Below are positions 4,593 through 45,056 of a stretch of 60,696 nucleotides of DNA, one piece after another. This DNA comes from an uncultured Candidatus Saccharibacteria bacterium (GTDB lineage: Bacteria; Patescibacteriota; Minisyncoccia; Phycocordibacterales; UBA2100). The stretch is from positions 23,202-83,897 of the forward strand of contig CAZGUV010000002.1 of NCBI GenBank assembly GCA_964528735.1, written 5' to 3'. Positions within the stretch are counted from its first letter, which is position 1. Each line of letters starts with the position of its first letter. Below the pieces are notes generated by a model. The model did no database searches. It saw only the letters and a list, made by a program, of their open reading frames with translations, and was not told where the DNA came from. The translations under genes and the position numbers were made by a program.

Positions 4593-5972
4593 CTAGAGAT
4601 ACTCGAGTGGATTCAAGTAACCATTCCATGCAGATACAGGCACTGCGACATTGCGACACGGACTCGATGGGTTCACTTCTCCCATCTTTACTACCTTTAC
4701 GGCCTCAGCAGCGTATACAGTGAAATGCAGGTGTGGACCGGTCGAATAGCCAGTGTTACCTGAATAGCCGACAACATCGCTCGTGGTAACAGACTGACCA
4801 GGAGACACATTTATGACTGACAAGTGGCCATAGAGTGTCGCGAGTCCATTCGGGTGCCTCAAGAGTACGTATTTTCCGTATGAATAACATCCACGCGCGA
4901 CGTCTGTGTTTCCAGTTGCAAGTACGGTACCTGTGAGTGCTGCTTTAACAGGGGTACCGACAGATGCCTGAAAATCAACACCGTTATGGCCTTTACCACC
5001 GTATGCACCACTCTGTGAGAATGATGTCGTACCAAATTTTTGTGTGATGCGCACTTTATCGAGTGGCCAACTCAATATGCCTTTGCCTGCTGCTGGGATT
5101 TTTGTGCGGTCCAAGACGTAACGCAACTGTGACTCATAGCTACTCATTTCTGCTTCGAATTGTGCTTTTGCTCGCTTTTTGTCAGCAAGTATTTTTTGGT
5201 ACTCTGACTCTTGGTTTTTTGTCTCTGCAAGGACGCTCGACTTTGCTGCACGTGTGATGTCGAGCGACTGTTTTTGGACTTGGTAATTTTTTTGTTGCTT
5301 TGCGAGAGTGACTTTTTGGTTTTCGTTCGCAGCTTTTAATGTCTCGATTGCCTTACGCTCTTTACGAAGGAGTTCAACACGGGCTTGCACGGTTTGCTGG
5401 ACGTCACGCAGGTTTTCGATGTTGTTGATGGTTGTCGAGAGTGTCCCGTTACGTAAAAAGTTTTCCATAAATGAAGTACCTTCGGTTGAGTCTACTGAGC
5501 GAATGGTCTCTGCAGTCGCTGCAATCATGCGCTTCAATGCTTCAGAGCGAGTACCTACTTCTTTTGTAAGTGACTGTATGCGCTCTTCTGCATCTAGCAT
5601 GCGTTCTTTAGTGAGTGAGATGTTTGCGGTCGTACGCTTTCGGTTGAGGTCGAGTTCGTAAATCGTATTTGTAAGAGTGCGCTTTTGTGCACTCACGGTG
5701 TTGAGTTCTTTTTGATATTTTGAAATCTCTGTTTCCAGCTTATCGATTTCTTTCGCACGCGAATTTATCTGCAAACGCAATAACTCTGCACTTGCACGTT
5801 CACGAGCTGCCTCCTCTTCTTGAATCCGCTTTGCCTCCGCCGCAGCACGCGCCTCAGCCTCACGTGTCGAGGCGTCTTCAGGACTTTCTTCTTGTGCAAA
5901 TGCTGAAAATGGCGAAATGTATGCAATCGCAAGTACCCCAGCCATCAGGACAGCTATCATTCGTTTCTGCAT
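4593..5972 (-). CDS. M23 peptidoglycan metalloendopeptidase with a signal peptide and a long coiled-coil N-terminal region (EnvC-like architecture)
   Basis: Signal-like MQKRMIAVLMAGVLAIAYISPFSAFA is followed by about 280 aa rich in E/K/Q heptads. The C-terminal part has HNGVDF and GPHLHF metal ligands. Confidence 0.8.
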   Translation of the reverse strand: MQKRMIAVLMAGVLAIAYISPFSAFAQEESPEDASTREAEARAAAEAKRIQEEEAARERASAELLRLQINSRAKEIDKLETEISKYQKELNTVSAQKRTLTNTIYELDLNRKRTTANISLTKERMLDAEERIQSLTKEVGTRSEALKRMIAATAETIRSVDSTEGTSFMENFLRNGTLSTTINNIENLRDVQQTVQARVELLRKERKAIETLKAANENQKVTLAKQQKNYQVQKQSLDITRAAKSSVLAETKNQESEYQKILADKKRAKAQFEAEMSSYESQLRYVLDRTKIPAAGKGILSWPLDKVRITQKFGTTSFSQSGAYGGKGHNGVDFQASVGTPVKAALTGTVLATGNTDVARGCYSYGKYVLLRHPNGLATLYGHLSVINVSPGQSVTTSDVVGYSGNTGYSTGPHLHFTVYAAEAVKVVKMGEVNPSSPCRNVAVPVSAWNGYLNPLEYL

Positions 5973-5997
5973 CTATTTAGTATACAGGAGAGAGGCC

Positions 5998-7458
5998 TTA
6001 CTGTTGAGCGTTTTCAACACGCTGGAGCGTCTCTTGCTTTCCAAGAATGGAGGCCACTGTAAATGGATCAGGTGACTTTTCTCTTCCGGTTAGTGCTACG
6101 CGCAGCGGCCAGAGGACCATGCCTCGCCCTTTCTCCTCTGCGTAGCCCCACACAGCGTTTTTTACTGTCTCAGGAGTCCATGTGTCCTCGGTCTGAGATA
6201 AGAGGTTGTATATCTGCTTGAGATGCGTGCGTGTTTCTTCGAGTGTGCTCTTTTTTGGTATCAGTATTTCACCGATGTGTTGTGGTGAGTGTAAGAAGTA
6301 GTCGTACTCTCCTGATGCACACTGCTCCTTTATGTCGCCAAACGTGTGCGCACGGTCGCGTGCGAGTGGTATGAGTTGTGCGAGGAGGTCGGGTTTTGCT
6401 TGAAAGCGCTCGTCAAAAAACGCTTTTGCGTTTTCAGCAAACAACTCATGAGGAAGCTTGAGGAGGTACTCGCGATTAAACCATTTGAGCTTCTCCTCGT
6501 TCAAAATTGCTCCGTGTGTTTGAATCCCTTCGACACTAAAAGTACGTACTAATTCATCCCGCGTAAAGAGCTCTTGTTCGGTGCCCGGATTCCACCCGAT
6601 GAATGCAAGAAAGTTTATCATCGCTTCAGGAAGGTACCCTTCCGTTCGATACTCGAGCACATCTTTTGCTCCATCACGTTTGCCCAATTTTTTTGTCTTA
6701 TCTTCGCGCAAAATCGGTGGAAGTGTAACCAGTGCAGGGACGGCAATGCCGAGCGCTTGATACAAACTTAAAAACTTCGGGGTGCTCGAGATAAATTCAT
6801 CTGCGCGCATGATATGCGTAACAGACATGTTGTAATCATCCACTATGTGTGCAAAGTTGTATGTCGGGTAGCCATCAGCTTTGATCAAAATAAAGTCATC
6901 GAGTGCCTCCTCGCCTGCCTCGAGATTACCGCGCACCTCGTCATGCCATTTCATGCGTTTTACCTCTGGTACACGAAAACGAAGAGGTCGTTTTCCATCC
7001 CAGGTACCTGGATTGACGGGACGATGCTCTCTGAAGAGAAATGGTCGTCGTTCGCTTTGTGCTTTTTTTCGAAACGCGTCGACTTCCTCAGCACTGTATG
7101 GGTCAGGATATGCATGCCCCTTTTTGATGAGTAGCTCTGCCATGTCTCGATAGGTTTGGAGACGTTCTGATTGTATTGCCGAACCAAATGGGTTTTCCTT
7201 GTCAGGACCATAGTCCCAATCGAGTCCAAGCCATTTCAAAGTTTCTTGGATGTGTGCAATTGAGCCCGGCACTTCTCGCTCCTTATCAGTGTCTTCGATG
7301 CGTAGTATGAACGTGCCACCTTCCTTTCGTGCCAAAAGCCATGCAAAGAGCGCAGTTCGAAGACCTCCAATGTGCATGAAGCCAGTAGGACTTGGTGCGA
7401 ATCGTGTGACAATTTTACTCATGAAGGCGAGTCTAGCGTGATAAGGCTCTCTGGGCAA
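5998..7458 (-). CDS. gltX: Glutamyl-tRNA synthetase
   Basis: RFAPSPTGFMHIGGLRTALF (HIGH) and KLGKRDG (KMSKS-like). The true start is probably the internal Met at 7422 (MSKIVTRFAPSPTG). Confidence 0.9.
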   Translation of the reverse strand: MPREPYHARLAFMSKIVTRFAPSPTGFMHIGGLRTALFAWLLARKEGGTFILRIEDTDKEREVPGSIAHIQETLKWLGLDWDYGPDKENPFGSAIQSERLQTYRDMAELLIKKGHAYPDPYSAEEVDAFRKKAQSERRPFLFREHRPVNPGTWDGKRPLRFRVPEVKRMKWHDEVRGNLEAGEEALDDFILIKADGYPTYNFAHIVDDYNMSVTHIMRADEFISSTPKFLSLYQALGIAVPALVTLPPILREDKTKKLGKRDGAKDVLEYRTEGYLPEAMINFLAFIGWNPGTEQELFTRDELVRTFSVEGIQTHGAILNEEKLKWFNREYLLKLPHELFAENAKAFFDERFQAKPDLLAQLIPLARDRAHTFGDIKEQCASGEYDYFLHSPQHIGEILIPKKSTLEETRTHLKQIYNLLSQTEDTWTPETVKNAVWGYAEEKGRGMVLWPLRVALTGREKSPDPFTVASILGKQETLQRVENAQQ

Positions 7459-7462
7459 CCGT

Positions 7463-8599
7463 CTATTCCTCGTGCTCGAGGACTGTACCGAGTATCACTT
7501 GGGCCATCTTCTTTGCAGCATCAGGGCGTGCAAAAGCACGTGCACTTCGCGCCATGGTATCTCGGATTTCCTTTGTTTCCATGATGCGGTCAATCTCTGA
7601 GGCAAGTATGTGTGAGGTAAGGTTTTTTTGTTCGATGACTGTGCAAGCTCCAGCGCGCATGTACGCAAAAGCGTTTTTCGTCTGGTCATGAGAAATCTCT
7701 TCAGGTATTGGTACGATGATGCTTGGCAAGCCCCACTGCGCGATTTCAAAAATTCCACCAGTTCCGGCTCGTGAGACTACCAGAGATGCAGCACCTGCTG
7801 ACATCTTCATTGCAAGCGCGTTAAGAAATCCGTACGTCTTATATCTCTGCGAGTACTCACTGTTATTGAGCATGACATGTGCGATACCGCGCACTTCTTC
7901 AAGGTGTGCGACACCTGTCTGGTGCACAACTTGGTACTTTGGCAAAAGAATAGACAGCGCATCGAGTACTGTGTTGTTGATTGTTTGTGCACCTGAAGAT
8001 CCGCCAAGAATAAGGATGGTAGGAATCTCTGGTGAAAGCTCGAGGAATGTGTGCATTCCCTCTTTTGCTGGGAACATAACATCTTTGCGGATAGGATTTC
8101 CGACAAGCGCAATTTTCTCACGAGGTGCTTGCATCTGGTCTTCAGTGCCTGGGTATGAAATGCCAATATATTTCGCAAACTTTGATGCGTACTTATTGGT
8201 GCGCCCGACTGAGGCATCTGACTCATGAATGATGACTGGTATGGTAAGTATGCGTGCGGCTACTACTGTCGGGAATGCTGCATAGCCACCTTTGCAAAAT
8301 ACAACATCTGGGTAGAGCGAGTAGAGTTGGAAAATTGATTTGATGATTCCTACAAATGTCTTCAACATATCAAACACATTCAAAAGCGATGGATAGCGTC
8401 GAAGCTTGCCCGCTGGCGATTGAATAAAAGTTATGTTGTGCTCGGTGAGCGCTTGTGAGTCATAGGCATCAGGACCTATGTAGTAGAGTTGTGGCTCTAT
8501 GATATGTCGCTCCTCGCAGATGCGGTATATCTCTTCGGCTACCGCAATAAGTGGATAGAAATGTCCTCCGGTTCCTCCTCCTGTTAGTACTATTTTCAT
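7463..8599 (-). CDS. murG: UDP-GlcNAc:lipid I N-acetylglucosaminyltransferase
   Basis: MKIVLTGGGTGGHFYPLIAV N-terminus. Length 378 aa and cell-wall gene context. Confidence 0.9.
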   Translation of the reverse strand: MKIVLTGGGTGGHFYPLIAVAEEIYRICEERHIIEPQLYYIGPDAYDSQALTEHNITFIQSPAGKLRRYPSLLNVFDMLKTFVGIIKSIFQLYSLYPDVVFCKGGYAAFPTVVAARILTIPVIIHESDASVGRTNKYASKFAKYIGISYPGTEDQMQAPREKIALVGNPIRKDVMFPAKEGMHTFLELSPEIPTILILGGSSGAQTINNTVLDALSILLPKYQVVHQTGVAHLEEVRGIAHVMLNNSEYSQRYKTYGFLNALAMKMSAGAASLVVSRAGTGGIFEIAQWGLPSIIVPIPEEISHDQTKNAFAYMRAGACTVIEQKNLTSHILASEIDRIMETKEIRDTMARSARAFARPDAAKKMAQVILGTVLEHEE

Positions 8600-34516: not shown

Positions 34517-35548
34517 TTAGAGTGCTACGTACTTGCCGTCGTTTGTACGATTGAAGATGGTTCCGTCTTGGAGGTTTACGAGAATCGTTCCATCTTTTAC
34601 GTATCTTTCTCGTTTGACTCTGTCGATGATTTCCTTTTTTGAGAGCGGGCCGTCTTTCTTAAGAATATCTTTGATGACTTCCTTCACGACTCCTTTCGAG
34701 TATCCCCATTCTGAGAGTGCATACAATCCACGTCCCACAAGCACAAAGCGTTCATCTTTAATGAGTTCGTTATGACATGTTGCTTCGTGTGCCTTTCTTC
34801 CAAACAACTCTGAGATTGAACGAGCTACTTCAGCAAAATGCATCGGTGAGCCATGTCGTTTGAGAGAAAGATATGCCATGTCTCGCATATTTTTTACACG
34901 TACTCCTGGTGCGTCAATTCTGCCCCACTCACCAAGCTGGTTTCTTGAAATCTTTTTTGAAAGTGAGAGCCATCGGCGTGCAGTCTCTTGTGTGTGGTGT
35001 CGTTTGTCGAGATGAGCAAGATCCTTTAGAAAACGTGTGACAAGTTCTGACTCAGGGACAAGTTCTTCATTTGAAAGTGAGCGGTACAGGTTTCTGAGTG
35101 CGGTGTGCACTGAATCAGCGATGCCTTGGTCAGCATGCCAACGGTGATTGAATTCAGGGTCTTCCTTCAATCGCTCGAAATCATTCCCCACAACAAGTAG
35201 GAAGTGAATGTGGTTTTGCAAGCCTTCATTTTTTGAGATTGCATCGAGGAGTTCTTGTTCTGGAACAATGCCACCCATATCGATAATTATCCCTGCGAGC
35301 TCAGTGAATACTGCTGACGCCTCTTTGTATGATGGAGATGTACGGATCGCGCCGATTGCTCTATTTTCGATTTGTCGGACGCGTTCTCGTGTAATTGTGT
35401 ACCGTGTACCGATAGTCTCGAGGGTGTCTCGTTTTACCGTGTTGCCCAAGCCATAACGCCCCGTAAGAACGTCTCGCTCTCGTGACGGAAGTACCCCGAG
35501 AAGCTTTTTGGTGACCTGTTTAGGCTTGAATGTGACGGAAAACTGCAT
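34517..35548 (-). CDS. Sigma-70 region-4-like HTH plus HARE-HTH domain protein
   Basis: N-terminal SRERDVLTGRYGL...LETIGTRYTITRERVRQIENRAI (region 4). The later segment MAYLSLKRHGSPMHFAEVARSI...ERFVLVGRGLYALSEWGY resembles the HARE-HTH of the RNAP delta subunit. Confidence 0.55.
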   Translation of the reverse strand: MQFSVTFKPKQVTKKLLGVLPSRERDVLTGRYGLGNTVKRDTLETIGTRYTITRERVRQIENRAIGAIRTSPSYKEASAVFTELAGIIIDMGGIVPEQELLDAISKNEGLQNHIHFLLVVGNDFERLKEDPEFNHRWHADQGIADSVHTALRNLYRSLSNEELVPESELVTRFLKDLAHLDKRHHTQETARRWLSLSKKISRNQLGEWGRIDAPGVRVKNMRDMAYLSLKRHGSPMHFAEVARSISELFGRKAHEATCHNELIKDERFVLVGRGLYALSEWGYSKGVVKEVIKDILKKDGPLSKKEIIDRVKRERYVKDGTILVNLQDGTIFNRTNDGKYVAL

Positions 35549-35663: not shown

Positions 35664-38600
35664 CTACAGAACGATATTTACGATTTTGTTGGGTATAACT
35701 ATGACCCTGCGAGGAGTACCCTCACCAATCCATTTTTTGACCTCTGTCAAGGCCATTTCCTTGAGGGTGTCTTCGGCGAGATTTGGCGTTGCTTGGAGTG
35801 TGCCTCGAAGCTTTCCATTCACCTGAACTGCGATGGTAATAGACGATGAAATCAGCTTTTTCTCTGACCAGCGTGGAAACCTTTCAAGATGCACTGATTT
35901 TTTATGACCTCGCATGTGCCACAACTCTTCTGAGATGTGTGGTGCAAAAGGAGCAAGGAGAGTAACTAAGCTATCGAACTGCGAGCTTGAGATACCATGC
36001 TTCTCAGCTACATTTATAAAGCTCATAAGAGCTGCTATTGCAGTGTTGAATTTGAGACCTGCAACATCCTCTGTAATTTTTTTGATTACTTTATGGAGTT
36101 CTCGCTCAGTCTCCTCGTGCACGCCAAGCGATATCTTTTCCTGCAATCTCCATACTCGTTCAAGAAAACGGCGTACCCCGACGATAGCTTCCGGTGACCA
36201 CGGGTAACTCCCCGGTTCGTTAAATGGACCGATAAAGGCAAGGTACATGCGGACAGTGTCAGCCCCAAGCTTTTTCACCACGTCATCGGGGTCAATGACG
36301 TTACCTTTGCTCTTACTCATCTTTTGTCCATCAGGACCAAGAATAAGTCCCCTGTTCATTCTCTTTGCGTATGGTTCCTTTTCTCGAACCAATTTCATAT
36401 CATAGAGTGCTTTGTGCCAAAAGCGGCTGTAGAGCACGTGCATTGTGGTGTGCTCTGCACCGCCTGAGTAGAGATCTACTGGCAACCATTGTTGAAGCTT
36501 TTTTCTTTGTGCAAATTCCTTTTTGTTCTTTGGGTCCGCATATCGCAAGTAATACCACGATGAGCAAATGAAGGTGTCGAATGTATCAGTCTCTCGAGAT
36601 GCAGGAGCCTTGCATTGCGGGCACGTTGTTTTTACCCACTTCGATGCCTTTGCAAGTGGTGACTTACCATCTCCAGCTGGGAGGTAGTCATTTACGCGAG
36701 GTAGCTCTACGGGGAGACTTTTTTCAGGGACTGGTACATAGCCACATGCGCTGCAATGAATCATTGGAATTGGTACTCCCCAGTATCGTTGTCGTGAGAC
36801 TATCCAATCACGTAGGCGGTACGTTTTCTTAGTGCGACCATATGACTCAACTATCAATTTCTTGGCAGAGTCTGAATGCATGCCAGTGTATTCACCAGAA
36901 TCCAAAAGGAAACCCGAGTCAGTGTGTACCTGGTGTTGACCAGAGGTGTGCTGTTTCCAGAGGAGGTCCTTCTCTTTTATCGTAAGAAACGGCAACACTT
37001 CGTGAGCTGGCTTCCATTCATGAGTGTGCTTGGCGAGCTCATCAGCATCTACATGCCCCTGTTCATCGTTTTCAAGTTCAAAATACAAATAGGTGAATTC
37101 AACGCGTCTGTTTTCTTGTTTGATGGTATGGAAAAACTCAACGGTTGCAGCGTCTCCAATCTGCCGTATGAAGCGTGGATTTTTGTAACCGCTTTCCTCT
37201 CGGATCTCTCGTATACCTGCCTCGATGGCACTCTCATCTCTTTCGATACCTCCTGATATGAATGAGCGTATTGGATAGTTATTCCACGTTTGGCACAAGT
37301 ATTCATCCTTATTCCAATGCTTTACTATACACATAACTGCACGTCGATGGACAAATGGTAGTCCGTCTCGCACTGCATCAGCACCTGACGTTTGTCTCAC
37401 AACGCGAGAGACAACTTGCTTAATAGGGAGTGAAAAAGATTTTGCAAAAGCATTATCTCGTTCATCGTGACCAGGCACTGCCATAATTGCTCCGGTACCA
37501 TAGTGTGCAAGCACGTAATCACTTATGAAAACAGGTATTTCTTCTTTTGTTGCAGGATTGATAGCATGTACACCGAGTAGTTTGACTCCCGTTTTAACCT
37601 TATTTTCCTGTCGCTCAAGTTCGGTCTTTTGATTTGCCTGAGTACGATATGCAATTACCTCCTTCTCATTTTTTATGAGTCCGCGCTGGGCGAGCGCTCC
37701 AGTGACCCATGGATGTTCAGGTGCTAGTACCATATATGTTGCGCCGAAGATAGTATCCGGCCTTGTGGTGAACACACGTACTGTAGGCGTAATCGCCATG
37801 AGCATATCCGGCTCTCCCTTCTCGGATGAAAAGTGTGGCACTACACCTGTACCCTTAATAAGGAGTCCTCCAAGAGTATTACTCCATTCAGAGGCATCTG
37901 ATTGAGGCACGATAGTGTCGGTCTCATCTGTAAGAACTACAAAACTTTTTGCATGTGCGCGAATGGTTGCAATATCGTACTGATGCTTACACGCCCTGGT
38001 GACTGAACGGCGTGCTTTCTTGTCGAGAAATACGCCTGAGTGTGGTGTGGAGATTAATGTCACTCTCCCCACCTTCCTCCCAAGTTCTAGCACGCGAAGC
38101 GCAACGAGTCCGCCAAATGAGACACCGACCAATGCAGTTGATTCATCAAGTGTGCAGTGCTTCATGACATGTGCAGCCTGTTCATCGAGGTCTGGCTCCT
38201 GAGTGTGAGGCAATGTCGGCATTTCTACGGTATACCCGCGCTCTTCAAGCTTCCTTTTTAACCAAGGAAAGGCGTGCGACTGTGGGGAGCCATTTCTGCC
38301 ATGAAGAATAACCACCCGCTTGCACGAATCAACACCAGAAAGTGCAAAATCAATCTCCGCGCCTTCGCTTCTCCCTATCCAATTTCGCTGTGAATCCTTT
38401 ATTGCTTCTGGCCAATCAAGATTATCAAGATCATCAACAAGTCTGTCAGCATACTTAGTTATAGCAATATTCCACTGAGGCATGAGTCGTTGTTCAACCT
38501 TGTGGCCACAGCGCTCACACTCCCCTCCGATTACTTGCTCATTTGCAAGCACGGTTTTGCATGATGGACACCAATTCGCACTCGTATCTTTTCTATGTAC

Positions 38601-39044
38601 TAACCCTTTTTTGTAGAGTTGCAAGAATAGCCATTGTGTCCACTTATAATAAGCAGGGTCACACGTCACAACCTCTCTCGTCCAATCAAATGATGTACCC
38701 ATTGACGCAATCTGCTTTCGCATGTGCGCCATGTTTTTATACGTCCACGTACGCGGGTTGATGCCGCGTTTAATTGCAGCGTTTTCAGCAGGCAAACCGA
38801 ATGCATCAAACCCAATCGGAAATAGCACATTCTTGCCGGTCATTCGCATTGTTCGTGCGTACATGTCTGGTACTGCAAATGCGTACCAGTGTCCCACGTG
38901 GAGGTTGCCAGATGGATAAGGAAATTCAACAAGGACGAAATTATTCTTTTTACCTTTTTCTGAGTCCTTTACTGTATAGAGACCTTTCTTCTGCCACTCT
39001 TTCTGCCACTTCTTTTCAATACGTGCATGGTTGTACTCCTTCAT
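35664..39044 (-). CDS. leuS: Leucyl-tRNA synthetase, unusually long (1126 aa) because of two nested domains
   Basis: HIGH (NLHVGH), KMSKS (QKMSKSKGN), editing motifs TTRPDT and GTGAIMAVPGHDERD, RLRDWIVSRQRYWGVPIP, and a C-terminal tRNA-binding domain. Confidence 0.9.
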   Translation of the reverse strand: MKEYNHARIEKKWQKEWQKKGLYTVKDSEKGKKNNFVLVEFPYPSGNLHVGHWYAFAVPDMYARTMRMTGKNVLFPIGFDAFGLPAENAAIKRGINPRTWTYKNMAHMRKQIASMGTSFDWTREVVTCDPAYYKWTQWLFLQLYKKGLVHRKDTSANWCPSCKTVLANEQVIGGECERCGHKVEQRLMPQWNIAITKYADRLVDDLDNLDWPEAIKDSQRNWIGRSEGAEIDFALSGVDSCKRVVILHGRNGSPQSHAFPWLKRKLEERGYTVEMPTLPHTQEPDLDEQAAHVMKHCTLDESTALVGVSFGGLVALRVLELGRKVGRVTLISTPHSGVFLDKKARRSVTRACKHQYDIATIRAHAKSFVVLTDETDTIVPQSDASEWSNTLGGLLIKGTGVVPHFSSEKGEPDMLMAITPTVRVFTTRPDTIFGATYMVLAPEHPWVTGALAQRGLIKNEKEVIAYRTQANQKTELERQENKVKTGVKLLGVHAINPATKEEIPVFISDYVLAHYGTGAIMAVPGHDERDNAFAKSFSLPIKQVVSRVVRQTSGADAVRDGLPFVHRRAVMCIVKHWNKDEYLCQTWNNYPIRSFISGGIERDESAIEAGIREIREESGYKNPRFIRQIGDAATVEFFHTIKQENRRVEFTYLYFELENDEQGHVDADELAKHTHEWKPAHEVLPFLTIKEKDLLWKQHTSGQHQVHTDSGFLLDSGEYTGMHSDSAKKLIVESYGRTKKTYRLRDWIVSRQRYWGVPIPMIHCSACGYVPVPEKSLPVELPRVNDYLPAGDGKSPLAKASKWVKTTCPQCKAPASRETDTFDTFICSSWYYLRYADPKNKKEFAQRKKLQQWLPVDLYSGGAEHTTMHVLYSRFWHKALYDMKLVREKEPYAKRMNRGLILGPDGQKMSKSKGNVIDPDDVVKKLGADTVRMYLAFIGPFNEPGSYPWSPEAIVGVRRFLERVWRLQEKISLGVHEETERELHKVIKKITEDVAGLKFNTAIAALMSFINVAEKHGISSSQFDSLVTLLAPFAPHISEELWHMRGHKKSVHLERFPRWSEKKLISSSITIAVQVNGKLRGTLQATPNLAEDTLKEMALTEVKKWIGEGTPRRVIVIPNKIVNIVL
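36930..37409 (-). other. In-frame Nudix hydrolase domain inserted in LeuRS (aa ~546-705)
   Basis: GGIERDESAIEAGIREIREESGY is a perfect match to the Nudix box Gx5Ex7REUxEExGU. Confidence 0.7.
37785..38333 (-). other. In-frame alpha/beta serine-hydrolase domain inserted in LeuRS (aa ~238-420)
   Basis: VVILHGRNGSPQSH, GVSFGG (GxSxG), DETDTIVP (acid) and VPHF (His). The arrangement resembles YdeN/RBBP9-type esterases. Confidence 0.6.
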
Positions 39045-39086: not shown

Positions 39087-40139
39087 TTATGCGAGTGCAA
39101 TCTTGTTCGAATGCGCAGACCACTGGACTAAATTCCATAGTACGCGCATCCCCACATTCGCATTCCACTCGTTGTCATTTGCTTGAGGTGAGACTTCATT
39201 GAGGTCAAAACCAATGACTGTTCTACCGGATTCAGAAATCGTTTTGATAAGGTACACAGCTTCCTCATAACTCAGACCGCCAGGTACTGGAGTGCCAGTT
39301 CCCGGACAGAGAGATGGATTAAGCCCATCAATATCAAAGCTTATGTAGACTTTTTGAGGTAGTGACGAGACAATTGAGTTGACCGTTTCTGACCATGTAA
39401 CACCTTCAAATCGTTCCTTTTTGAGATCGGAGTCAAAATACGCATGCACTCTCCCGTCACTACTATCAATCAAGCTCTTTTCACCTGGAGAAAAATCTCG
39501 AATACCAACTTGTACCAATTTTTTCATTGTAGGGATTGTTTTGAGTACATTCCACATAATTGATGCGTGAGAATACGTAAAGCCTTCGTATGCTTCACGT
39601 AAGTCGCAGTGAGCATCAATTTGTAAAATCCCGAAGTCATCATGTATAGCACCGAGTGCTCGTATGAGACCGTAGGGAGTGCTGTGGTCGCCCCCGACGA
39701 CCCCAACAAGCTTTCCTTCACGTAAGAAATATTCAGACTCTTCCTGAATTTCATCATGAAACACCTCACATGCGACATTTATTTCTGCGAGTGCTTTTAC
39801 GTTTGGTTTTTTTCCGTGAGATATATCATCGATATACTTCTCTGCCTTTGCGCGTAGTTGTTTTCCTCGCTTCATCGAGTTTTGTTTTTCCACGAGGGGC
39901 ATCATGCAAACCGGCACTTTCCACGAATCATTTCCGTACGCCTCATGGTAGTAGTCAATTTGAGGTGACGCTTTGAGTATCGCTTCCGGTGCGTTATGTG
40001 CTCCTCCGCCATACGAAACAGTAACTCCCCATGGTGCAGGTATAAGCACAATTCGGGCAGTACTGAGCGTGTGAGGAAGTCCAAATAAACCGCTATTCTC
40101 TTTAGATACGCCATTTGGGTCAAAATGTTCGTTTTTCAT
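39087..40139 (-). CDS. speB: Agmatinase (ureohydrolase family)
   Basis: GGDHS, DAHCDLR and SFDIDGL Mn-binding motifs. Confidence 0.75.
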   Translation of the reverse strand: MKNEHFDPNGVSKENSGLFGLPHTLSTARIVLIPAPWGVTVSYGGGAHNAPEAILKASPQIDYYHEAYGNDSWKVPVCMMPLVEKQNSMKRGKQLRAKAEKYIDDISHGKKPNVKALAEINVACEVFHDEIQEESEYFLREGKLVGVVGGDHSTPYGLIRALGAIHDDFGILQIDAHCDLREAYEGFTYSHASIMWNVLKTIPTMKKLVQVGIRDFSPGEKSLIDSSDGRVHAYFDSDLKKERFEGVTWSETVNSIVSSLPQKVYISFDIDGLNPSLCPGTGTPVPGGLSYEEAVYLIKTISESGRTVIGFDLNEVSPQANDNEWNANVGMRVLWNLVQWSAHSNKIALA

Positions 40140-40147
40140 ACTAGCTA

Positions 40148-41362
40148 TTATGCCATGCGAGCCTTGTAATCATCATAGGTAAAGGTTCGTAATGTATGCA
40201 TCATTCCGTCCTTCCAGTGCAATATCGAGGGATGCTGTACGCCATTAAACATAGTACATTGGACCATATTGTATTGAATACCATCGAGAAGCACCACATA
40301 ATCGCCTACAGAAAGATTTTTCTCAAAGCTGTGAAAATGATTGAGGTGGTCGCCTGTGACGCATGTACCTCCTGCAAGTTGATAGAGGTTGTTTGCATGC
40401 TGAGTAAGATCACGCACTACACGTGCTCCAAGTACAGGCATGTCCAAGTCGGTACTCAAAAGAAAGTCAGGTGTATGTGCATTGAATGACATATCGAGTA
40501 TCGCGATTTTATACGGTACATCATCTCGTTCAACAATATCGAGAACTCGAGTCACTAGAGCGCCAGCATTTTTACATATAGCAGCCCCAGGTTCGAAGTG
40601 CATAGTGAGCTCATATTTTGACTGTATGTCGCGGATGAGTTTAATAAACCCTTCTACATCGTACGAGTCATCAGTGATTCGTTGGCCACCACCAAGATTG
40701 AGCCATTCCAATGCCTGCAAATGCGTGCCGAATCGCTCCTCAATCAGTCGTGCAGACTTTTGCAAATCTTCGAAATCCTTGTCAAAGAAAATGTGCATGT
40801 GAAATCCAGAGATGCCTTCAAGTGCCTGAGGATTCTTATGCAACTCTGCATCAAGTTCGCTTTTTCGTATTCCAAGTCGAGAGCCAGGTGCGCAAGGACT
40901 CCAGAGGTTTTCGTGCTCATCATCCCCCATGTACTCCGGGTTGATGCGAAGACCGCAATGTATCTCCTTACCAGTACGTTTGGTGTATGAGATCACCGCA
41001 TCCTTGTAGGTGTACCACTGAGGGAATGAGTTGAAGATAACGGTACTCGAATTCTCTAATATGCGTTCAAATTCGGATGCAACATACGCCGGAGCAAAGA
41101 TATGCACTGATTCATTGAAGAAATCATGACCCAGCCTCGCCTCATTCAAAGAGCTTGCCTCAGAACCATCTAGATATTGCCTTGTTATTTCAAACAGCGG
41201 ATATGTTGACCATGTCTTCAGTGCTTGAAACATTTTGCAACCCGTTGCCTCACGTATATTTTTTAGGATTTCCAAGTTGTGCCTCAACACCGCATCATCA
41301 ATAACAAATGCGCTCGATGTCACCTTCGAATAATCAATACTTAGTGAGGGTCTTGATGACAT
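40148..41362 (-). CDS. nspC: Carboxy(nor)spermidine decarboxylase
   Basis: PLP fold-III decarboxylase of ~400 aa with ALKT lysine context and LGGG. It lies directly downstream of the saccharopine-dehydrogenase-like gene. Confidence 0.7.
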   Translation of the reverse strand: MSSRPSLSIDYSKVTSSAFVIDDAVLRHNLEILKNIREATGCKMFQALKTWSTYPLFEITRQYLDGSEASSLNEARLGHDFFNESVHIFAPAYVASEFERILENSSTVIFNSFPQWYTYKDAVISYTKRTGKEIHCGLRINPEYMGDDEHENLWSPCAPGSRLGIRKSELDAELHKNPQALEGISGFHMHIFFDKDFEDLQKSARLIEERFGTHLQALEWLNLGGGQRITDDSYDVEGFIKLIRDIQSKYELTMHFEPGAAICKNAGALVTRVLDIVERDDVPYKIAILDMSFNAHTPDFLLSTDLDMPVLGARVVRDLTQHANNLYQLAGGTCVTGDHLNHFHSFEKNLSVGDYVVLLDGIQYNMVQCTMFNGVQHPSILHWKDGMMHTLRTFTYDDYKARMA

Positions 41363-41364
41363 GG

Positions 41365-42630
41365 CTAAATCTTTTCAGGCAAGGGCTTGTGGTCCACCAC
41401 AACAAACGGGAGTCCATTTTTTGAAACAATCTCAAGGAATGGCTCCGGGTCAAGTTGCTCCATGTTGTATACACCAGCACCCTCCCATACCCCACTCATA
41501 AGCATGTATGCCGCTGACATTGCGGGGACACCAGTGGTATATGAAATGGCCTGAGAGCCAACTTCTTTAAAGCACTCAGCGTGGTCACAGACGTTGTAGA
41601 TATACTTCGTGAACTCTTTTCCATCTTTCTTGCCAGTAACTATGCAACCAATATTTGTTTTGCCGCTGTAGTTTGTTGCGAGCGACGCAGGATCAGGAAG
41701 AAGTGCCTTTAAAAACTCCATCGGGACAATCTTCTCGACCTTTCCGTTGTGTTTGAATGGAACAGGTTTTATTCCTGAAATACCGATGCTTTCCATAACT
41801 CGCAAATGAGTAAGGTAGTTTTCACCGAAAGTCATCCAAAAGCGCATTCGCTTAAGTCCAGGGAGATTTTTAACAAGTGACTCCATTTCTTCATGGTACA
41901 GCAAGTAGCTTTCCTTTGGTCCTATCTGTGGGTAATCAAACGCGAAATGGATGCTGCCTTTGTTCATCACTGCAGGAGTTGTCACCCACTTTCCATGCTC
42001 CCAGTGACGCACTTCCTGAGTAACTTCTCGAATGTTGATTTCTGGGTTGAAATTTGTTGCAAAAGACTTGTCGTGACTACCAGCGTTTGCATCAAGTATA
42101 TCGACTGTAGAAATAGTGTCGAAGTACTTCTTTAGCATATACGCACAGTACATATTGGTAACCCCAGGATCAAAGCCTGCTCCGAGTACTGCCATAAGCC
42201 CCGCTTTTTTGAATTTCGACTGGTATGCCCATTGCCATTTATATTCAAACTTAGCAACATCCTTAGGTTCGTAGTTCGCAGTATCGATGTAGTGCACGCC
42301 AGTCTTTAGGCATGCATCCATTATTGTCAGGTCTTGGTATGGTAGCGCGAGGTTGAGGACTAGAAACGGCTTCACTTTTTTAATCAGTGAAACGAGTTGT
42401 GGTACTTTATCTGCGTCAACCTCGTGAGTCGCAATGGTTACACCCCATCGCTTCTTAACGTCCTTCTTTATTGCGTCAGCCTTCTTCTTTGTTCTCGATG
42501 CTACATGAATTTTTTTAAAGACAGCGCTATTCATTGCGCATTTATGGATTGCCACTGAGGCAACTCCACCAGCACCAATGATGAGGATTGTTCCATTATT
42601 GTTATTTTTTTTCATAGCTTTAGTATACAT
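41365..42630 (-). CDS. Carboxy(nor)spermidine dehydrogenase/synthase (saccharopine dehydrogenase family)
   Basis: ILIIGAGGVASVAIHKCAMN Rossmann N-terminus followed by ASRT. Length 421 aa and pairing with nspC. Confidence 0.7.
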   Translation of the reverse strand: MYTKAMKKNNNNGTILIIGAGGVASVAIHKCAMNSAVFKKIHVASRTKKKADAIKKDVKKRWGVTIATHEVDADKVPQLVSLIKKVKPFLVLNLALPYQDLTIMDACLKTGVHYIDTANYEPKDVAKFEYKWQWAYQSKFKKAGLMAVLGAGFDPGVTNMYCAYMLKKYFDTISTVDILDANAGSHDKSFATNFNPEINIREVTQEVRHWEHGKWVTTPAVMNKGSIHFAFDYPQIGPKESYLLYHEEMESLVKNLPGLKRMRFWMTFGENYLTHLRVMESIGISGIKPVPFKHNGKVEKIVPMEFLKALLPDPASLATNYSGKTNIGCIVTGKKDGKEFTKYIYNVCDHAECFKEVGSQAISYTTGVPAMSAAYMLMSGVWEGAGVYNMEQLDPEPFLEIVSKNGLPFVVVDHKPLPEKI

Positions 42631-42633
42631 TGA

Positions 42634-43707
42634 TTAAAGATACTTTTGTGCGTGGAGCAATTCAGCAATAAGCACGCCTCCACCAGCGGCGCCTCGTATT
42701 GTATTATGAGACAATCCGACAAACTTCCACTGGAGTATCGGGTCTTCCCGGAGTCTTCCCACAGTGACAGCCATGGACTTGTCTGCGTCTCTATCGAGGC
42801 GAGTTTGTGGTCGGTTCTCCTCCTCTCGATACAGGATTGCCTGCTTTGGCGCAAGCGGTAAGCAAAGCGACTGAGGGAGGCCAGAGAATGCTTTCCATGC
42901 ACTTAGTATCTCGTCTTTTGATGGTTTTTGTTCGCATTCGAATGACACACATGCCATGTGCCCATCAATGGTAGGGACACGGTTGCAATGTGCTGAGATT
43001 GTAAAAGATTCGTCGTAGAGGAATGCATTCTCGCCAACTGTCCCTAGAATTTTTCTCGGTTCGATTTCTGACTTCTGCTCTTCGCCGCCAATGTACGGGA
43101 TGACATTGTCCAGAATGTCATACGACGACACACCTGGGTGTCCTGCCCCTGATATAGACTGCATCGTTGTGACGATGACCTTTTTCAGGCGGTGTGTCTT
43201 ATGGAGCGCAGCCAGTGGCGCTGTATAGCTTTGTATTGAGCAGTTAGGCTTTACAACAATGAAACCTTTAGACCAGTTTCGATTTTTTTGTTGAATTGGA
43301 ATCATCGATAGATGGTCAGCGTTTATCTCAGGGATGATCATTGGTACATCTGGAGTATGTCTATGTGTGGATGCATTTGAAACCACCGGAATCCCAGCCT
43401 CCGCATATTTCTCCTCCCATTCCTTCGCAATCGGTGTATCGAGTGCAGAAAACACGAAATCGCATGAGTCCTTACATGCCTGAATCTGATCGACTGTTGT
43501 TACCACACAAGTCGCCACTTCGCGAGGTAGTTCTGTACTCATGTGCCAACGACCTTGTACAGCCTCCGCATACGTTTTGCCCGCAGATGATTCACTTGCG
43601 ACTACATAGACAACTTCAAACCAAGGGTGGTTGTGTAGTAGTGTAATATACTGCTGCCCGACCATCCCTGTTGCTCCAAGTATTCCTACTCGTATTTTTT
43701 TGCTCAT
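42634..43707 (-). CDS. asd: Aspartate-semialdehyde dehydrogenase
   Basis: GILGATGMVGQ, active-site PNCS and HNTIRGAAG. Confidence 0.85.
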   Translation of the reverse strand: MSKKIRVGILGATGMVGQQYITLLHNHPWFEVVYVVASESSAGKTYAEAVQGRWHMSTELPREVATCVVTTVDQIQACKDSCDFVFSALDTPIAKEWEEKYAEAGIPVVSNASTHRHTPDVPMIIPEINADHLSMIPIQQKNRNWSKGFIVVKPNCSIQSYTAPLAALHKTHRLKKVIVTTMQSISGAGHPGVSSYDILDNVIPYIGGEEQKSEIEPRKILGTVGENAFLYDESFTISAHCNRVPTIDGHMACVSFECEQKPSKDEILSAWKAFSGLPQSLCLPLAPKQAILYREEENRPQTRLDRDADKSMAVTVGRLREDPILQWKFVGLSHNTIRGAAGGGVLIAELLHAQKYL

Positions 43708-45056
43708 ATTCGTTCTATTAATGCTTTGTGTAATGATACAACAGATTGCTTTGCGCTACTTTCGTGAACAAGAAACGTCACGCTCGTCCCTGATGCAGAC
43801 TCTGAAATCATACGTACCGGTATATTTTCTCTATCGAACACATGGCAGGCATCGCGAATGACCCGGGCATTGTTCATTTGTGCTCCTACTGCACAAACGA
43901 CAGCGCAGTCTTTGCTAACCTCAACACGACCAATTTGCGAAAGCTCCTTTACGAGCTTGTCCGTGTGAAGACTTGAAGCATAGCTACACGAGACACTTAC
44001 TACTGATGTCGAAATCACATCTACCGAAACTCGATTCTTCTCAAACACACTGAATATGCGCGCCATGAGACCGCTTCCATCATAAAAATCTGGTGTATGG
44101 AGCGTAACAACGGTAGTCCCTTTTGTGGCACTTATTGCTTTTGCCTTGCCGGCGCTATTTTCAGGTATTGATGATGTAATCAAGGTACCTTCACCATCAG
44201 GCTTGAATGTATTTAATACTCGTATAGGCACCTTTTGTAGCATTGCAGGGAGCATTGTCTTGGGGTGCAGAACTTTTGCGCCGAAGTACGCAAGTTCACT
44301 TGCCTCTTCGTAGTGGAGTGTTGGTATGAGGCGAGCATGAGGTACCACTCGCGGGTCAGTCGAAAGTACGCCATCCACTTCTTTCCATATTTGAATTTCG
44401 CGAGCTCGTAATGCCCCACCGATAATAGCTGTAGTGTAATCAGAACCTCCTCTTCCAAGCGTTGTGATTTTTCCTGACTTCGTCTTACCTATAAAGCCTG
44501 TTATTACAGGGATTTCATTCTTAATGCTCGATATTTTCTTTTGTAACATGCGCGGAGACTCCAGCAATGGCTCAGAATTGCCATGAACCGTTGTTGTGCA
44601 CATACCCACATCCCACGCATCGTACGCGCGCGCCTTATTTCCTGTGCTCTGAATAGCAGCTGCAACAATCCGTGAAGACATTCTCTCTCCAAAAGAGACT
44701 ACTGTATCGCGATACTGAGGGTAGTTCCTCGGGGTCTTTTTCTTAGTGATTGAATACAAATCGGCAAGTAGTGCATCTATAAGCGACGTCTCCATGTCGA
44801 GCGAATCGAGTATTGCATAGTGAAGATGGGCAATCTTTTTGAACAACGCCTCTTTGTGCTGCGGCCGAGTACTCTGTGAAAGCTCAACAAGTAAATCAGT
44901 AACTCCAGCAACCGCTGAGACAACCACCACTGGTTTTTGTCTTATGCGCTGGGTGACTATTTGTGCTACTTGCCTGATACTTTCCGCAGTTCCAACAGAT
45001 GTCCCTCCGAATTTCATTACTATCATAGAATCAACAATTACCCTGTAATGACTCAC
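43704..45056 (-). CDS. Aspartate kinase
   Basis: MKFGGTSVG and C-terminal ACT-type repeats. The likely start is the Met at 45026. There is a 4-nt ATGA overlap with asd. Confidence 0.85.
   Translation of the reverse strand: MSHYRVIVDSMIVMKFGGTSVGTAESIRQVAQIVTQRIRQKPVVVVSAVAGVTDLLVELSQSTRPQHKEALFKKIAHLHYAILDSLDMETSLIDALLADLYSITKKKTPRNYPQYRDTVVSFGERMSSRIVAAAIQSTGNKARAYDAWDVGMCTTTVHGNSEPLLESPRMLQKKISSIKNEIPVITGFIGKTKSGKITTLGRGGSDYTTAIIGGALRAREIQIWKEVDGVLSTDPRVVPHARLIPTLHYEEASELAYFGAKVLHPKTMLPAMLQKVPIRVLNTFKPDGEGTLITSSIPENSAGKAKAISATKGTTVVTLHTPDFYDGSGLMARIFSVFEKNRVSVDVISTSVVSVSCSYASSLHTDKLVKELSQIGRVEVSKDCAVVCAVGAQMNNARVIRDACHVFDRENIPVRMISESASGTSVTFLVHESSAKQSVVSLHKALIERI

Follow-up and report, generated by a model that had tools for sequence, protein, structure and literature searches.

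The window analysed here, a stretch of 60,696 nucleotides of contig CAZGUV010000002.1 from an uncultured Candidatus Saccharibacteria bacterium, encodes on its minus strand (35664..39044) a 1126-amino-acid bacterial-type leucyl-tRNA synthetase (LeuRS, gene leuS) that has two enzyme domains nested inside its CP1 editing domain, one of them a Nudix hydrolase domain with an intact Nudix box. The open reading frame (ORF) reaches 935 bits with the NCBIfam model TIGR00396 (leuS_bact), whose cut-off is 548, and contains the Pfam domains tRNA-synt_1, tRNA-synt_1_2 (the editing domain) and Anticodon_1. Its closest PDB entry is LeuRS of Thermus thermophilus (PDB structure: 1H3N, E=1e-209), and the AlphaFold2 (AF2) model of the whole protein, built with 115 homologues, has a mean predicted local distance difference test score (pLDDT) of 89.9 and a predicted TM score (pTM) of 0.77.

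The alignment with 1H3N consists of three blocks, in which residues 1-238 of the window protein correspond to residues 1-239 of the T. thermophilus enzyme, residues 422-547 to residues 243-364, and the residues from 706 onward to those from 376 onward. The broken alignment therefore indicates two insertions, one of 183 amino acids between T. thermophilus residues 239 and 243 and another of about 158 amino acids between residues 364 and 376. Around both inserts, the match to the editing-domain model of Pfam (PF13603) is split into three stretches, while in relatives that lack inserts it is contiguous. The original prediction, made from the letters of this DNA alone, had described the Nudix domain as nested inside the CP1 editing domain, and this wording is accurate, because the domain match is divided in just this way.

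The core of the editing domain (amino acids 422-545, 37410..37781; this and all other features of leuS are on the minus strand) is covered by the PF13603 match at amino acids 421-549, equivalent to profile positions 22-144 of 185. It holds the motifs FTTRPDT (amino acids 425-431, 37752-37772) and HDERD (amino acids 526-530, 37455-37469). The C-terminal part of the domain, identified by Pfam and by the 1H3N alignment, resumes straight after the Nudix insert with VHTDSGFLLDSGEYTG... at 36810..36929. The HIGH signature of the synthetic site is present as LHVGH (amino acids 48-52, 38889..38903), with invariant L48, H49 and G51, and the KMSKS signature (amino acids 908-912, 36309..36323) is invariant at K908, M909, S910, K911 and S912. 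The editing residues T427, R428, T431, H526, D527, R529 and D530 are likewise invariant across 115 sequences. With both signatures and the editing site invariant, the host LeuRS looks fully functional. Canonical bacterial LeuRS of known structure (T. thermophilus 1H3N/2BYT, E. coli 4AQ7) share with it full-length collinear homology, both signatures and the CP1 editing residues; the two CP1-nested enzyme domains set the window protein apart from them, and neither is seen in any solved LeuRS.

The Nudix insert comprises amino acids 546-705 (SRVVRQTSGADAV...SGQHQ), and translation of the minus strand places it at 36930..37409, just as predicted. It replaces a loop of about 11 residues between T. 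thermophilus residues 364 and 376. The predicted presence of about 160 amino acids in place of a short linker agrees with the 1H3N alignment, which breaks at residue 547 (T. thermophilus 364) and resumes at residue 706 (T. thermophilus 376); in E. coli LeuRS, about 13 residues lie across the same span of the alignment, and the mapping itself rests on 1H3N. A profile search, which had been proposed as a check of the Nudix fold, bears it out. The Pfam family NUDIX (PF00293, gathering score 21.1) matches amino acids 566-685 (36990..37349) over profile positions 2-120 of 134, with 47.2 bits when the insert is searched alone and 42.7 bits in the context of the full protein. The Nudix box, GGIERDESAIEAGIREIREESGY (amino acids 598-620, 37185..37253), had been called perfect, and it does fit the pattern GX5EX7REUXEEXGU at all defined positions, with R612, E613, E616 and E617 as the predicted catalytic residues. 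It is the sole match to this pattern in the six frames of the window, and no match was found in 20000 shuffles of the protein (0/20000).

Outside of the box, three more conserved elements can be recognised. The N-terminal motif GADAVRDGLPFVHR (G-x-D-A-x-R...P-F..R; amino acids 554-567, 37344..37385) has G554 in 95, D556 in 102 and R567 in 109 of 113 homologues, and is modelled with pLDDT of 92-95 in the full AF2 structure. This GxDAxR..PF..R motif is common to embedded and free-standing members of the subfamily that is described below, being present in the alignment as GADAPREGLPFVER in the proteins P0001 and P0002. The X-loop region TVEFFHT (amino acids 634-640, 37125..37145) contains two aromatic residues, F637 and F638, at 17 and 18 residues past the box; among the 113 homologues, residue 637 is Phe in 84 and Tyr in 28, and residue 638 is Tyr in 73 and Phe in 34. 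Finally, the C-terminal segment ELAKHTHEW (amino acids 669-677, 37014..37040) has E669 in 112, H673 in 104 and W677 in 112 of 113 homologues, and W677 is invariant in alignment A2, which includes free-standing as well as embedded members.

Structure modelling of the insert, another of the proposed checks, gave a result that matches solved Nudix enzymes. The AF2 model of the isolated domain has pLDDT of 94.4 and pTM of 0.88, and in the full-length model the same region, connecting segments included, has pLDDT of about 92-97. A Foldseek comparison of the Nudix model with the PDB produced 547 matches at E<=1e-3, with the Nudix fold throughout the top 50. The best of them is 2AZW (TM 0.72/0.82), then comes the Aquifex diadenosine tetraphosphate (Ap4A) hydrolase 3I7U (0.65/0.81), and further neighbours include many entries of E. 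coli RppH, as well as CT771, DIPP and NUDT2, with sequence identity of 14-20% throughout. As modelled, the insert is a genuine Nudix fold, i.e., an alpha/beta/alpha sandwich. An ORF of 126 amino acids lies antisense to the Nudix-coding region (36876-37256, plus strand) and is most likely spurious, because the coding signal of the minus strand is strong.

The box is well preserved across 113 embedded homologues: G598 in 112, G599 in all 113, E604 in 106, R612 in 109, E613 in 112, E616 in 110, E617 in 113 and G619 in 112. Other near-invariant positions among these 113 copies are R567, N645, L657, E669, H673 and W677. In close pairs, the Nudix segment has a ratio of nonsynonymous to synonymous substitution rates (dN/dS) of 0.036-0.071, no different from that of the LeuRS core. 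These comparisons show the metal-binding and catalytic box of the Nudix domain, together with several extra residues, to be under strong purifying selection. A chance motif or a decayed relic is ruled out by the conservation of the box, the outcome of the shuffles and the low dN/dS.

The insert is not chimeric: its absence from near relatives, which had been named as a possible refutation of the original prediction, is not what is seen, and closely related genomes carry it as well. Among the 120 other proteins listed by a homology search with the complete LeuRS, with source names of Candidatus Kaiserbacteria, Parcubacteria, Minisyncoccia and Paceibacterota, 109 have both inserts, seven only the hydrolase and four only the Nudix domain. 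A LeuRS protein identical to that of the window is present in NCBI, and two cluster members (>=90% identity) come from independent Logan assemblies. Uniform GC content along leuS, more than 100 collinear homologues, the independent assemblies and the low dN/dS together eliminate an assembly chimera or a foreign insertion.

To see how the arrangement is distributed, each GTDB species was scanned by way of one genome. A Nudix domain occupies this position of LeuRS in Saccharibacteria/Saccharimonadales, Moraniibacteriota (including the complete genome CP064994), Gracilibacteria, Lloydbacteria, Paceibacterota and Kaiserbacteria. The majority of these Nudix-bearing LeuRS are about 950-970 amino acids long, with the Nudix domain present and the alpha/beta hydrolase absent. 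LeuRS of Fusobacterium, Helicobacter, Coprothermobacter and many other genomes of the candidate phyla radiation (CPR) have only a short linker at the Nudix site. When 1.84 billion cluster representatives were searched exhaustively with HMMER, only 278 matched at E<=1e-3, and because they are so few, the domain can be regarded as a small, distinct Nudix subfamily. Word-index searches of a 5.8-billion-protein database with the insert and with the insert profile returned, respectively, 2 and 9 short proteins and missed the window's own protein, so that they are uninformative with regard to distribution.

Among the best 149 of the 278 subfamily matches, 96 include parts of LeuRS, and the longer proteins among the rest are mostly pieces of LeuRS; most of those that are about 280 amino acids long carry fragments of the editing domain. 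P0001 is a genuine free-standing gene, which codes for 160 amino acids, has its own start and stop, and is found on contigs from several samples. P0274, another candidate for a free-standing Nudix gene, was rejected as a piece of a frameshift-fragmented LeuRS. For 17 of 44 free proteins the nearest relative is an embedded copy, and the free and embedded forms are interleaved. At least 212 of about 300 subfamily copies are at the site seen in the window (site 2), 13 are at the site of the hydrolase insert (site 1), and the C-terminal half of LeuRS holds one, at a third site; there may be one, two or three copies per LeuRS. Judging by these sequence matches, the subfamily is found almost only in Patescibacteria, and mostly within LeuRS.

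There are several variations on this theme. Two or three Nudix copies of the same subfamily, either in tandem or distributed over sites 1 and 2, are seen in P0123, P0124, P0126, P0129, P0133 and L024 (amino acids 392-541 and 570-701), and P0128 (379 amino acids) is a free-standing double Nudix protein with halves that are 74% identical. Alignment A2 reveals a variant box, GGIEEGQTPEEAARAEVREETGY, in the embedded copies of P0014, P0060 and P0063 and in the free-standing P0001 and P0002; here Glu at position 7 is replaced by Gln, Arg at position 15 is replaced by Ala, and an Arg is found one residue earlier, so that the changes look coupled. The boxes of L011 and L012 (...REIQEETQC), L016 (NEIKEEAAL), L020 and L023 are degenerate, and catalysis may be lost there. 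In P0159 (251 amino acids), the subfamily Nudix domain is preceded by a weak match to HGTP_anticodon (18.9 bits, under the cut-off), which may represent a fusion to the C-terminus of a class II synthetase, or a fragment. In the Saccharibacteria contig L001, the LeuRS frame is stopped exactly at the start of the Nudix domain, giving two ORFs, 4852-6117 (422 amino acids, the N-terminal part) and 6121-8361 (747 amino acids, with Nudix first); possible causes are a split gene, recoding, or an error of sequencing.

The presence of the insert varies among closely related proteins. P0101, which is without the Nudix domain, and P0116, which has it, are 89% identical in the LeuRS core; the same comparison between L049 (without) and L002 (with) gives 83%. 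Both Nudix-minus forms have a clean short linker. These natural plus/minus pairs, together with the intact editing site, indicate that the Nudix insert is accessory to LeuRS catalysis.

Related LeuRS contain other nested domains as well. These include Ham1/ITPase (P0148, amino acids 984-1167), ASCH (L010, site 1, amino acids 246-352) and HAD_2 phosphatase, the latter at two different sites (P0115, amino acids 683-839, and L058, site 1). There is also a weak nucleotidyltransferase-like (NTP_transf_5-like) match at site 2 of P0036, and Nudix domains of different types occupy the same loops in L032 and in P0116/P0031. Because such varied domains fill the same loops, CP1 of Patescibacteria LeuRS appears to be a hotspot for the insertion of small hydrolases, most of them nucleotide-directed. 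The original prediction dealt with a single protein; the findings that go beyond it are that the Nudix insert is a widespread trait of the lineage, that its subfamily is largely LeuRS-specific, and that other hydrolase domains are found in the same loops.

The first insert of the window LeuRS (amino acids 239-421, 37782..38330), located between T. thermophilus residues 239 and 243, is a YdeN/RBBP9-like alpha/beta serine hydrolase. It was identified by a Pfam match to PF06821 (Ser_hydrolase, 36.9 bits at amino acids 244-408 of LeuRS) and by PDB matches to YdeN (1UXO, E=7e-10) and RBBP9. The insert shares with these proteins the positions of the GxSxG, Asp and His triad, predicted to consist of S309 (in GVSFG), D373 and H404, all near-invariant in homologues; it differs from them in being nested at the start of CP1, in the first hairpin. 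An alpha/beta hydrolase insert is also found in Gracilibacteria (L015) and Saccharimonadales (L021). The occurrence of an esterase-like domain inside a tRNA-deacylating domain is intriguing. Residues of the synthetic, editing, Nudix and Ser-Asp-His hydrolase sites are all conserved, consistent with the earlier proposal that several active sites are joined on one polypeptide.

Nearly all long ORFs of the window are on the minus strand. Directly upstream of leuS, at 39087-45056 of the same strand, are five genes, coding for aspartate kinase, aspartate-semialdehyde dehydrogenase, a protein similar to saccharopine/carboxynorspermidine dehydrogenase, a protein with the Orn/DAP/Arg-decarboxylase fold, and a member of the arginase/agmatinase family. 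As a set they resemble an alternative route to polyamines via carboxy(nor)spermidine, which is worthy of note in a reduced genome. Downstream of leuS (34517-35548, minus strand) there is a gene for a 343-amino-acid protein with an N-terminal Sigma70 region 4 and a HARE-HTH domain, which is an unusual arrangement. Rfam and tRNA scans of the entire window (1-60696) detected no tRNA genes and no Rfam families at gathering score.

What might a Nudix domain do inside LeuRS? Its fold, the intact box and purifying selection lend good support to pyrophosphohydrolase activity as a prediction, and in all likelihood the insert is an active accessory Nudix hydrolase. The nature of its substrate has to be judged by analogy. 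When the subfamily profile is compared to solved structures, the best match is AvrM14 (8DP8, E=8e-12, profile positions 19-155), followed by the lupin enzyme 1F3Y (7.7e-9, box region only) and Aquifex 3I7U (1.1e-7); a single-sequence search with the insert gives weak matches to 3I7U (E=0.06) and 1F3Y (E=0.11). AvrM14 is described as an mRNA-decapping Nudix hydrolase that leaves 5-PP-InsP5 uncleaved (bioRxiv 10.1101/2023.11.14.566975). AvrM14-A/B (8DP8/8DP9), for all its standing as the closest solved relative by profile, is a secreted single-domain effector of a eukaryote, the flax rust, with no link to synthetases, and the similarity is remote, so its substrate is not transferable. RppH/NudH and the Nudix Ap4A hydrolases (4S2Y/7SP3, 3I7U, CT771 4MPO, NUDT2 4IJX, lupin 1F3Y) resemble the insert in their fold (TM up to 0.65/0.81), intact box and an X-loop aromatic residue at about +17/+18. 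The insert, in contrast, has its own GxDAxR..PF..R motif and E669/H673/W677 signature, is nested in a synthetase, and has Phe in the X-loop.

The X-loop, about 17 residues past the box, sets the specificity of Nudix enzymes for the 'X' moiety (Srouji et al. 2017, PMC5389931), and Tyr at this distance is a marker of ApnA hydrolases (Dunn 1999 as reviewed in PMC5389931). It is to this marker that the aromatic X-loop of the insert appears closest. The Pro residue that marks ADP-ribose pyrophosphatases about 15-16 residues past the box is found neither at positions 633-638 of the window protein (ATVEFF) nor among the commonest residues of the family there, and the SQPWPFPxS motif of NADH diphosphatase (NudC) is absent from amino acids 621-660. 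The MutT model TIGR00586 does not match the insert at E<=1, and the free-standing P0001 scores 17.8 bits with it, where the cut-off is 97.9. In the cell, Ap4A comes mainly from aminoacyl-tRNA synthetases, and Nudix enzymes split it into ATP and AMP (PMC13627108). Because of the AvrM14, Ap4A-hydrolase and RppH neighbours, the aromatic X-loop, the absence of the Pro and NudC markers and the synthesis of Ap4A by synthetases, we favour hydrolysis of ApnN-type compounds or 5'-polyphosphates. Adenine-nucleotide polyphosphate compounds, of the kind cleaved by RppH, Ap4A/ApnA hydrolases and AvrM14, are thus a possible substrate class, put forward by analogy and with some diffidence.

The explanation that we tentatively prefer to the others combines an active accessory Nudix enzyme with substrates of the ApnN type. 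The Nudix domain has been spliced into a surface loop of CP1 and is inherited with the LeuRS that the cell uses. It would stand outside of both aminoacylation and proofreading, and act as a LeuRS-tethered hydrolase that cuts a pyrophosphate bond. Its likeliest substrates would be dinucleoside polyphosphates of the Ap4A/Ap3A type, formed from aminoacyl-adenylate and a nucleotide, or the equivalent 5'-polyphosphate or Np4-capped ends. Tethering would put the hydrolase where such by-products arise, and the same logic may apply to the Ham1 and HAD domains nested in related LeuRS.

Several observations weigh against this explanation. The X-loop of the window protein has Phe-Phe (F637, F638) and no Tyr, which is present in most homologues. 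Scores with the RppH models of NCBIfam (PRK00714) are 22.5 bits for the insert and 29.3 bits for P0001, with the cut-off at 118. With 14-20% identity to characterised Nudix enzymes, the substrate cannot be read from the sequence. LeuRS is a weak producer of Ap4A relative to LysRS or PheRS. Saccharibacteria also have a separate Nudix protein (WTIPKGHIEEGE...), whose gene belongs to a conserved cluster, nusB-nudix-rnc-rpsP, that is located downstream of leuS at a distance of 1-2 kb, in loci with and without the insert (L002 8771-10441, L008 8192-9894, L030 8253-9981, L049 8325-10002 and other Saccharibacteria loci). This protein is far closer to Ap4A/Ap6A hydrolases, with 3I7U matched at E=2e-12 by a single sequence, followed by Ndx1, the C. 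elegans Ap4A hydrolase and NUDT2. Since it coexists with the LeuRS insert, the latter is not required as 'the' Ap4A hydrolase. A free-standing copy of the insert's own subfamily was sought beside insert-less LeuRS genes and not found; the different, Ap4A-hydrolase-like Nudix gene is there instead. The earlier suggestion that the insert cleaves locally made Ap4A therefore stands in part: the aromatic X-loop and the Ap4A hydrolases among the structural neighbours speak for it, and the separate, closer Ap4A-hydrolase-like Nudix of Saccharibacteria speaks against it. Furthermore, the insert has been gained, lost or replaced between LeuRS of 83-89% core identity, and this lability, along with the unrelated domains in the same loops, fits a merely permissive scaffold equally well as functional coupling.

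The idea of a permissive scaffold is the strongest of the alternatives; we find it doubtful in itself, and rate it only slightly below the explanation that we favour. In such a case CP1 loops would just be tolerant of nested domains, and a gene that is both essential and constitutively expressed would offer a safe carrier in a minimal genome. The Nudix domain would then be cargo for general sanitising or salvage of the nucleotide pool, acting on non-canonical or damaged nucleoside triphosphates or on ADP-sugars and the like, with no mechanistic link to LeuRS chemistry. The company that it keeps is suggestive, as the domains in the same loops (Ham1/ITPase in P0148, HAD_2 in P0115 and L058, ASCH in L010, the alpha/beta serine hydrolase) are of the house-cleaning or salvage kind. 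The turnover of the insert among very close LeuRS, the existence of free-standing members, which suggests that the domain can work alone, the position of a distant free member next to a purine-nucleoside phosphorylase gene, and the coexistence of a canonical Ap4A-hydrolase-like gene with the insert all point in the same direction. Left unexplained, however, are the near-exclusive association of the subfamily with LeuRS, rather than with any other synthetase or large protein, and its independent placement at three LeuRS sites, in up to three copies. The lack of a MutT-type signal in the insert and in P0001 is also at odds with a role in sanitising nucleotides.

A bolder proposal, in which LeuRS CP1 of Patescibacteria is a docking platform that couples translation to the metabolism of nucleotides or RNA ends, strikes us as unlikely. 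Here a LeuRS-dedicated Nudix domain would act on Ap(n)N alarmones made by LeuRS, or on 5' ends of tRNA or other RNA bound by it, and would be gated by the leucine, ATP or tRNA state of the enzyme. If true, it would be a bacterial counterpart of the signalling roles that eukaryotic synthetases have gained via added domains.

It is less likely still that the insert is specifically an RNA 5'-end enzyme, i.e., a pyrophosphohydrolase similar to RppH, AvrM14 or Dcp2 that works on RNA held by LeuRS, be it tRNA-Leu with a 5'-triphosphate, NAD or Np4 cap or some other transcript. The top profile match, over nearly the whole domain, is the mRNA-decapping AvrM14, complexes of E. coli RppH with RNA dominate the Foldseek list, and the best NCBIfam matches, though weak, are to RppH models. 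LeuRS is known to bind tRNA beside CP1, and the ASCH domain at site 1 of L010 is of an RNA-binding type. On the other hand, no need for processing of the 5' end of tRNA-Leu is known in these bacteria, and the scores with the RppH family are far under the cut-offs.

The conservation of the box is also what makes a non-catalytic module improbable. Nudix folds can serve without catalysis, as in proteins of the CFIm25 type, and in LeuRS such a fold might sense a ligand, or provide a surface for binding protein or RNA, and so regulate the synthetase. The degenerate boxes in some lineages (L011/L012, L016, L020, L023) and the subgroup with E7Q and R15A substitutions agree with this possibility, but in the window protein and in about 95% of its homologues all catalytic positions are kept, and the retention of REx2EE in 109-113 of 113 copies is unexpected for a purely structural role. 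Hydrolysis of non-cognate aminoacyl-adenylates by the Nudix domain, i.e., the pre-transfer editing suggested in the original prediction, is very improbable, even with the domain inside the editing module and adenylate made on the same polypeptide: aminoacyl-AMP, which had been taken for a nucleoside-diphosphate-X compound, is instead a mixed anhydride of the acyl-phosphate kind, built on a nucleoside monophosphate and lacking a pyrophosphate bond, so that the reaction would be unprecedented for Nudix enzymes, and an integral editing role is further argued against by the fully conserved post-transfer editing site, by the clean presence or absence of the insert in functioning LeuRS of 83-89% core identity, and by the existence of free-standing homologues.

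Nudix hydrolases and synthetases with added domains are both known kinds of proteins; the nesting of Nudix in LeuRS seems to be new. In the open-access literature we found neither a LeuRS-Nudix architecture nor an insertion hotspot in CP1 described, an absence that is not a proof; a comprehensive review of Nudix enzymes does not mention tRNA synthetases, and two overviews of the CPR likewise contain no description of LeuRS-Nudix. Labels in public databases are automatic ('class I tRNA ligase family protein', 'NUDIX domain-containing protein', 'alpha/beta fold hydrolase'). Many lineages of this bacterial radiation share the arrangement, which has apparently never been described. One precedent for a catalytic domain on a bacterial class I synthetase is the NCBIfam family NF040702 ('isoleucine--tRNA ligase, N-acetyltransferase domain-containing'). 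It involves another synthetase and another cargo, and the window LeuRS matches it with 78.6 bits, against a cut-off of 1999, via the shared synthetase core alone.

To our knowledge, acquisition of domains by synthetases is a classic route to non-translational functions, with known examples that are almost all eukaryotic. Here, an entire bacterial radiation has an essential synthetase whose proofreading module houses between one and four additional catalytic domains, and the Nudix subfamily found there is selected as strongly as the core of the synthetase, yet comes and goes among close relatives. LeuRS is both a single-copy marker and a drug target, so that CP1 insertions of 300 amino acids have consequences for alignment, phylogeny and the modelling of inhibitors in these lineages. 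The natural plus/minus variants make this a testable system, for which a cultivable group of Saccharibacteria would give an experimental entry point. It could show whether hydrolysis of by-products or alarmones, or processing of RNA ends, is coupled to the site of aminoacylation, and could reveal how ultra-small genomes package their accessory enzymes.

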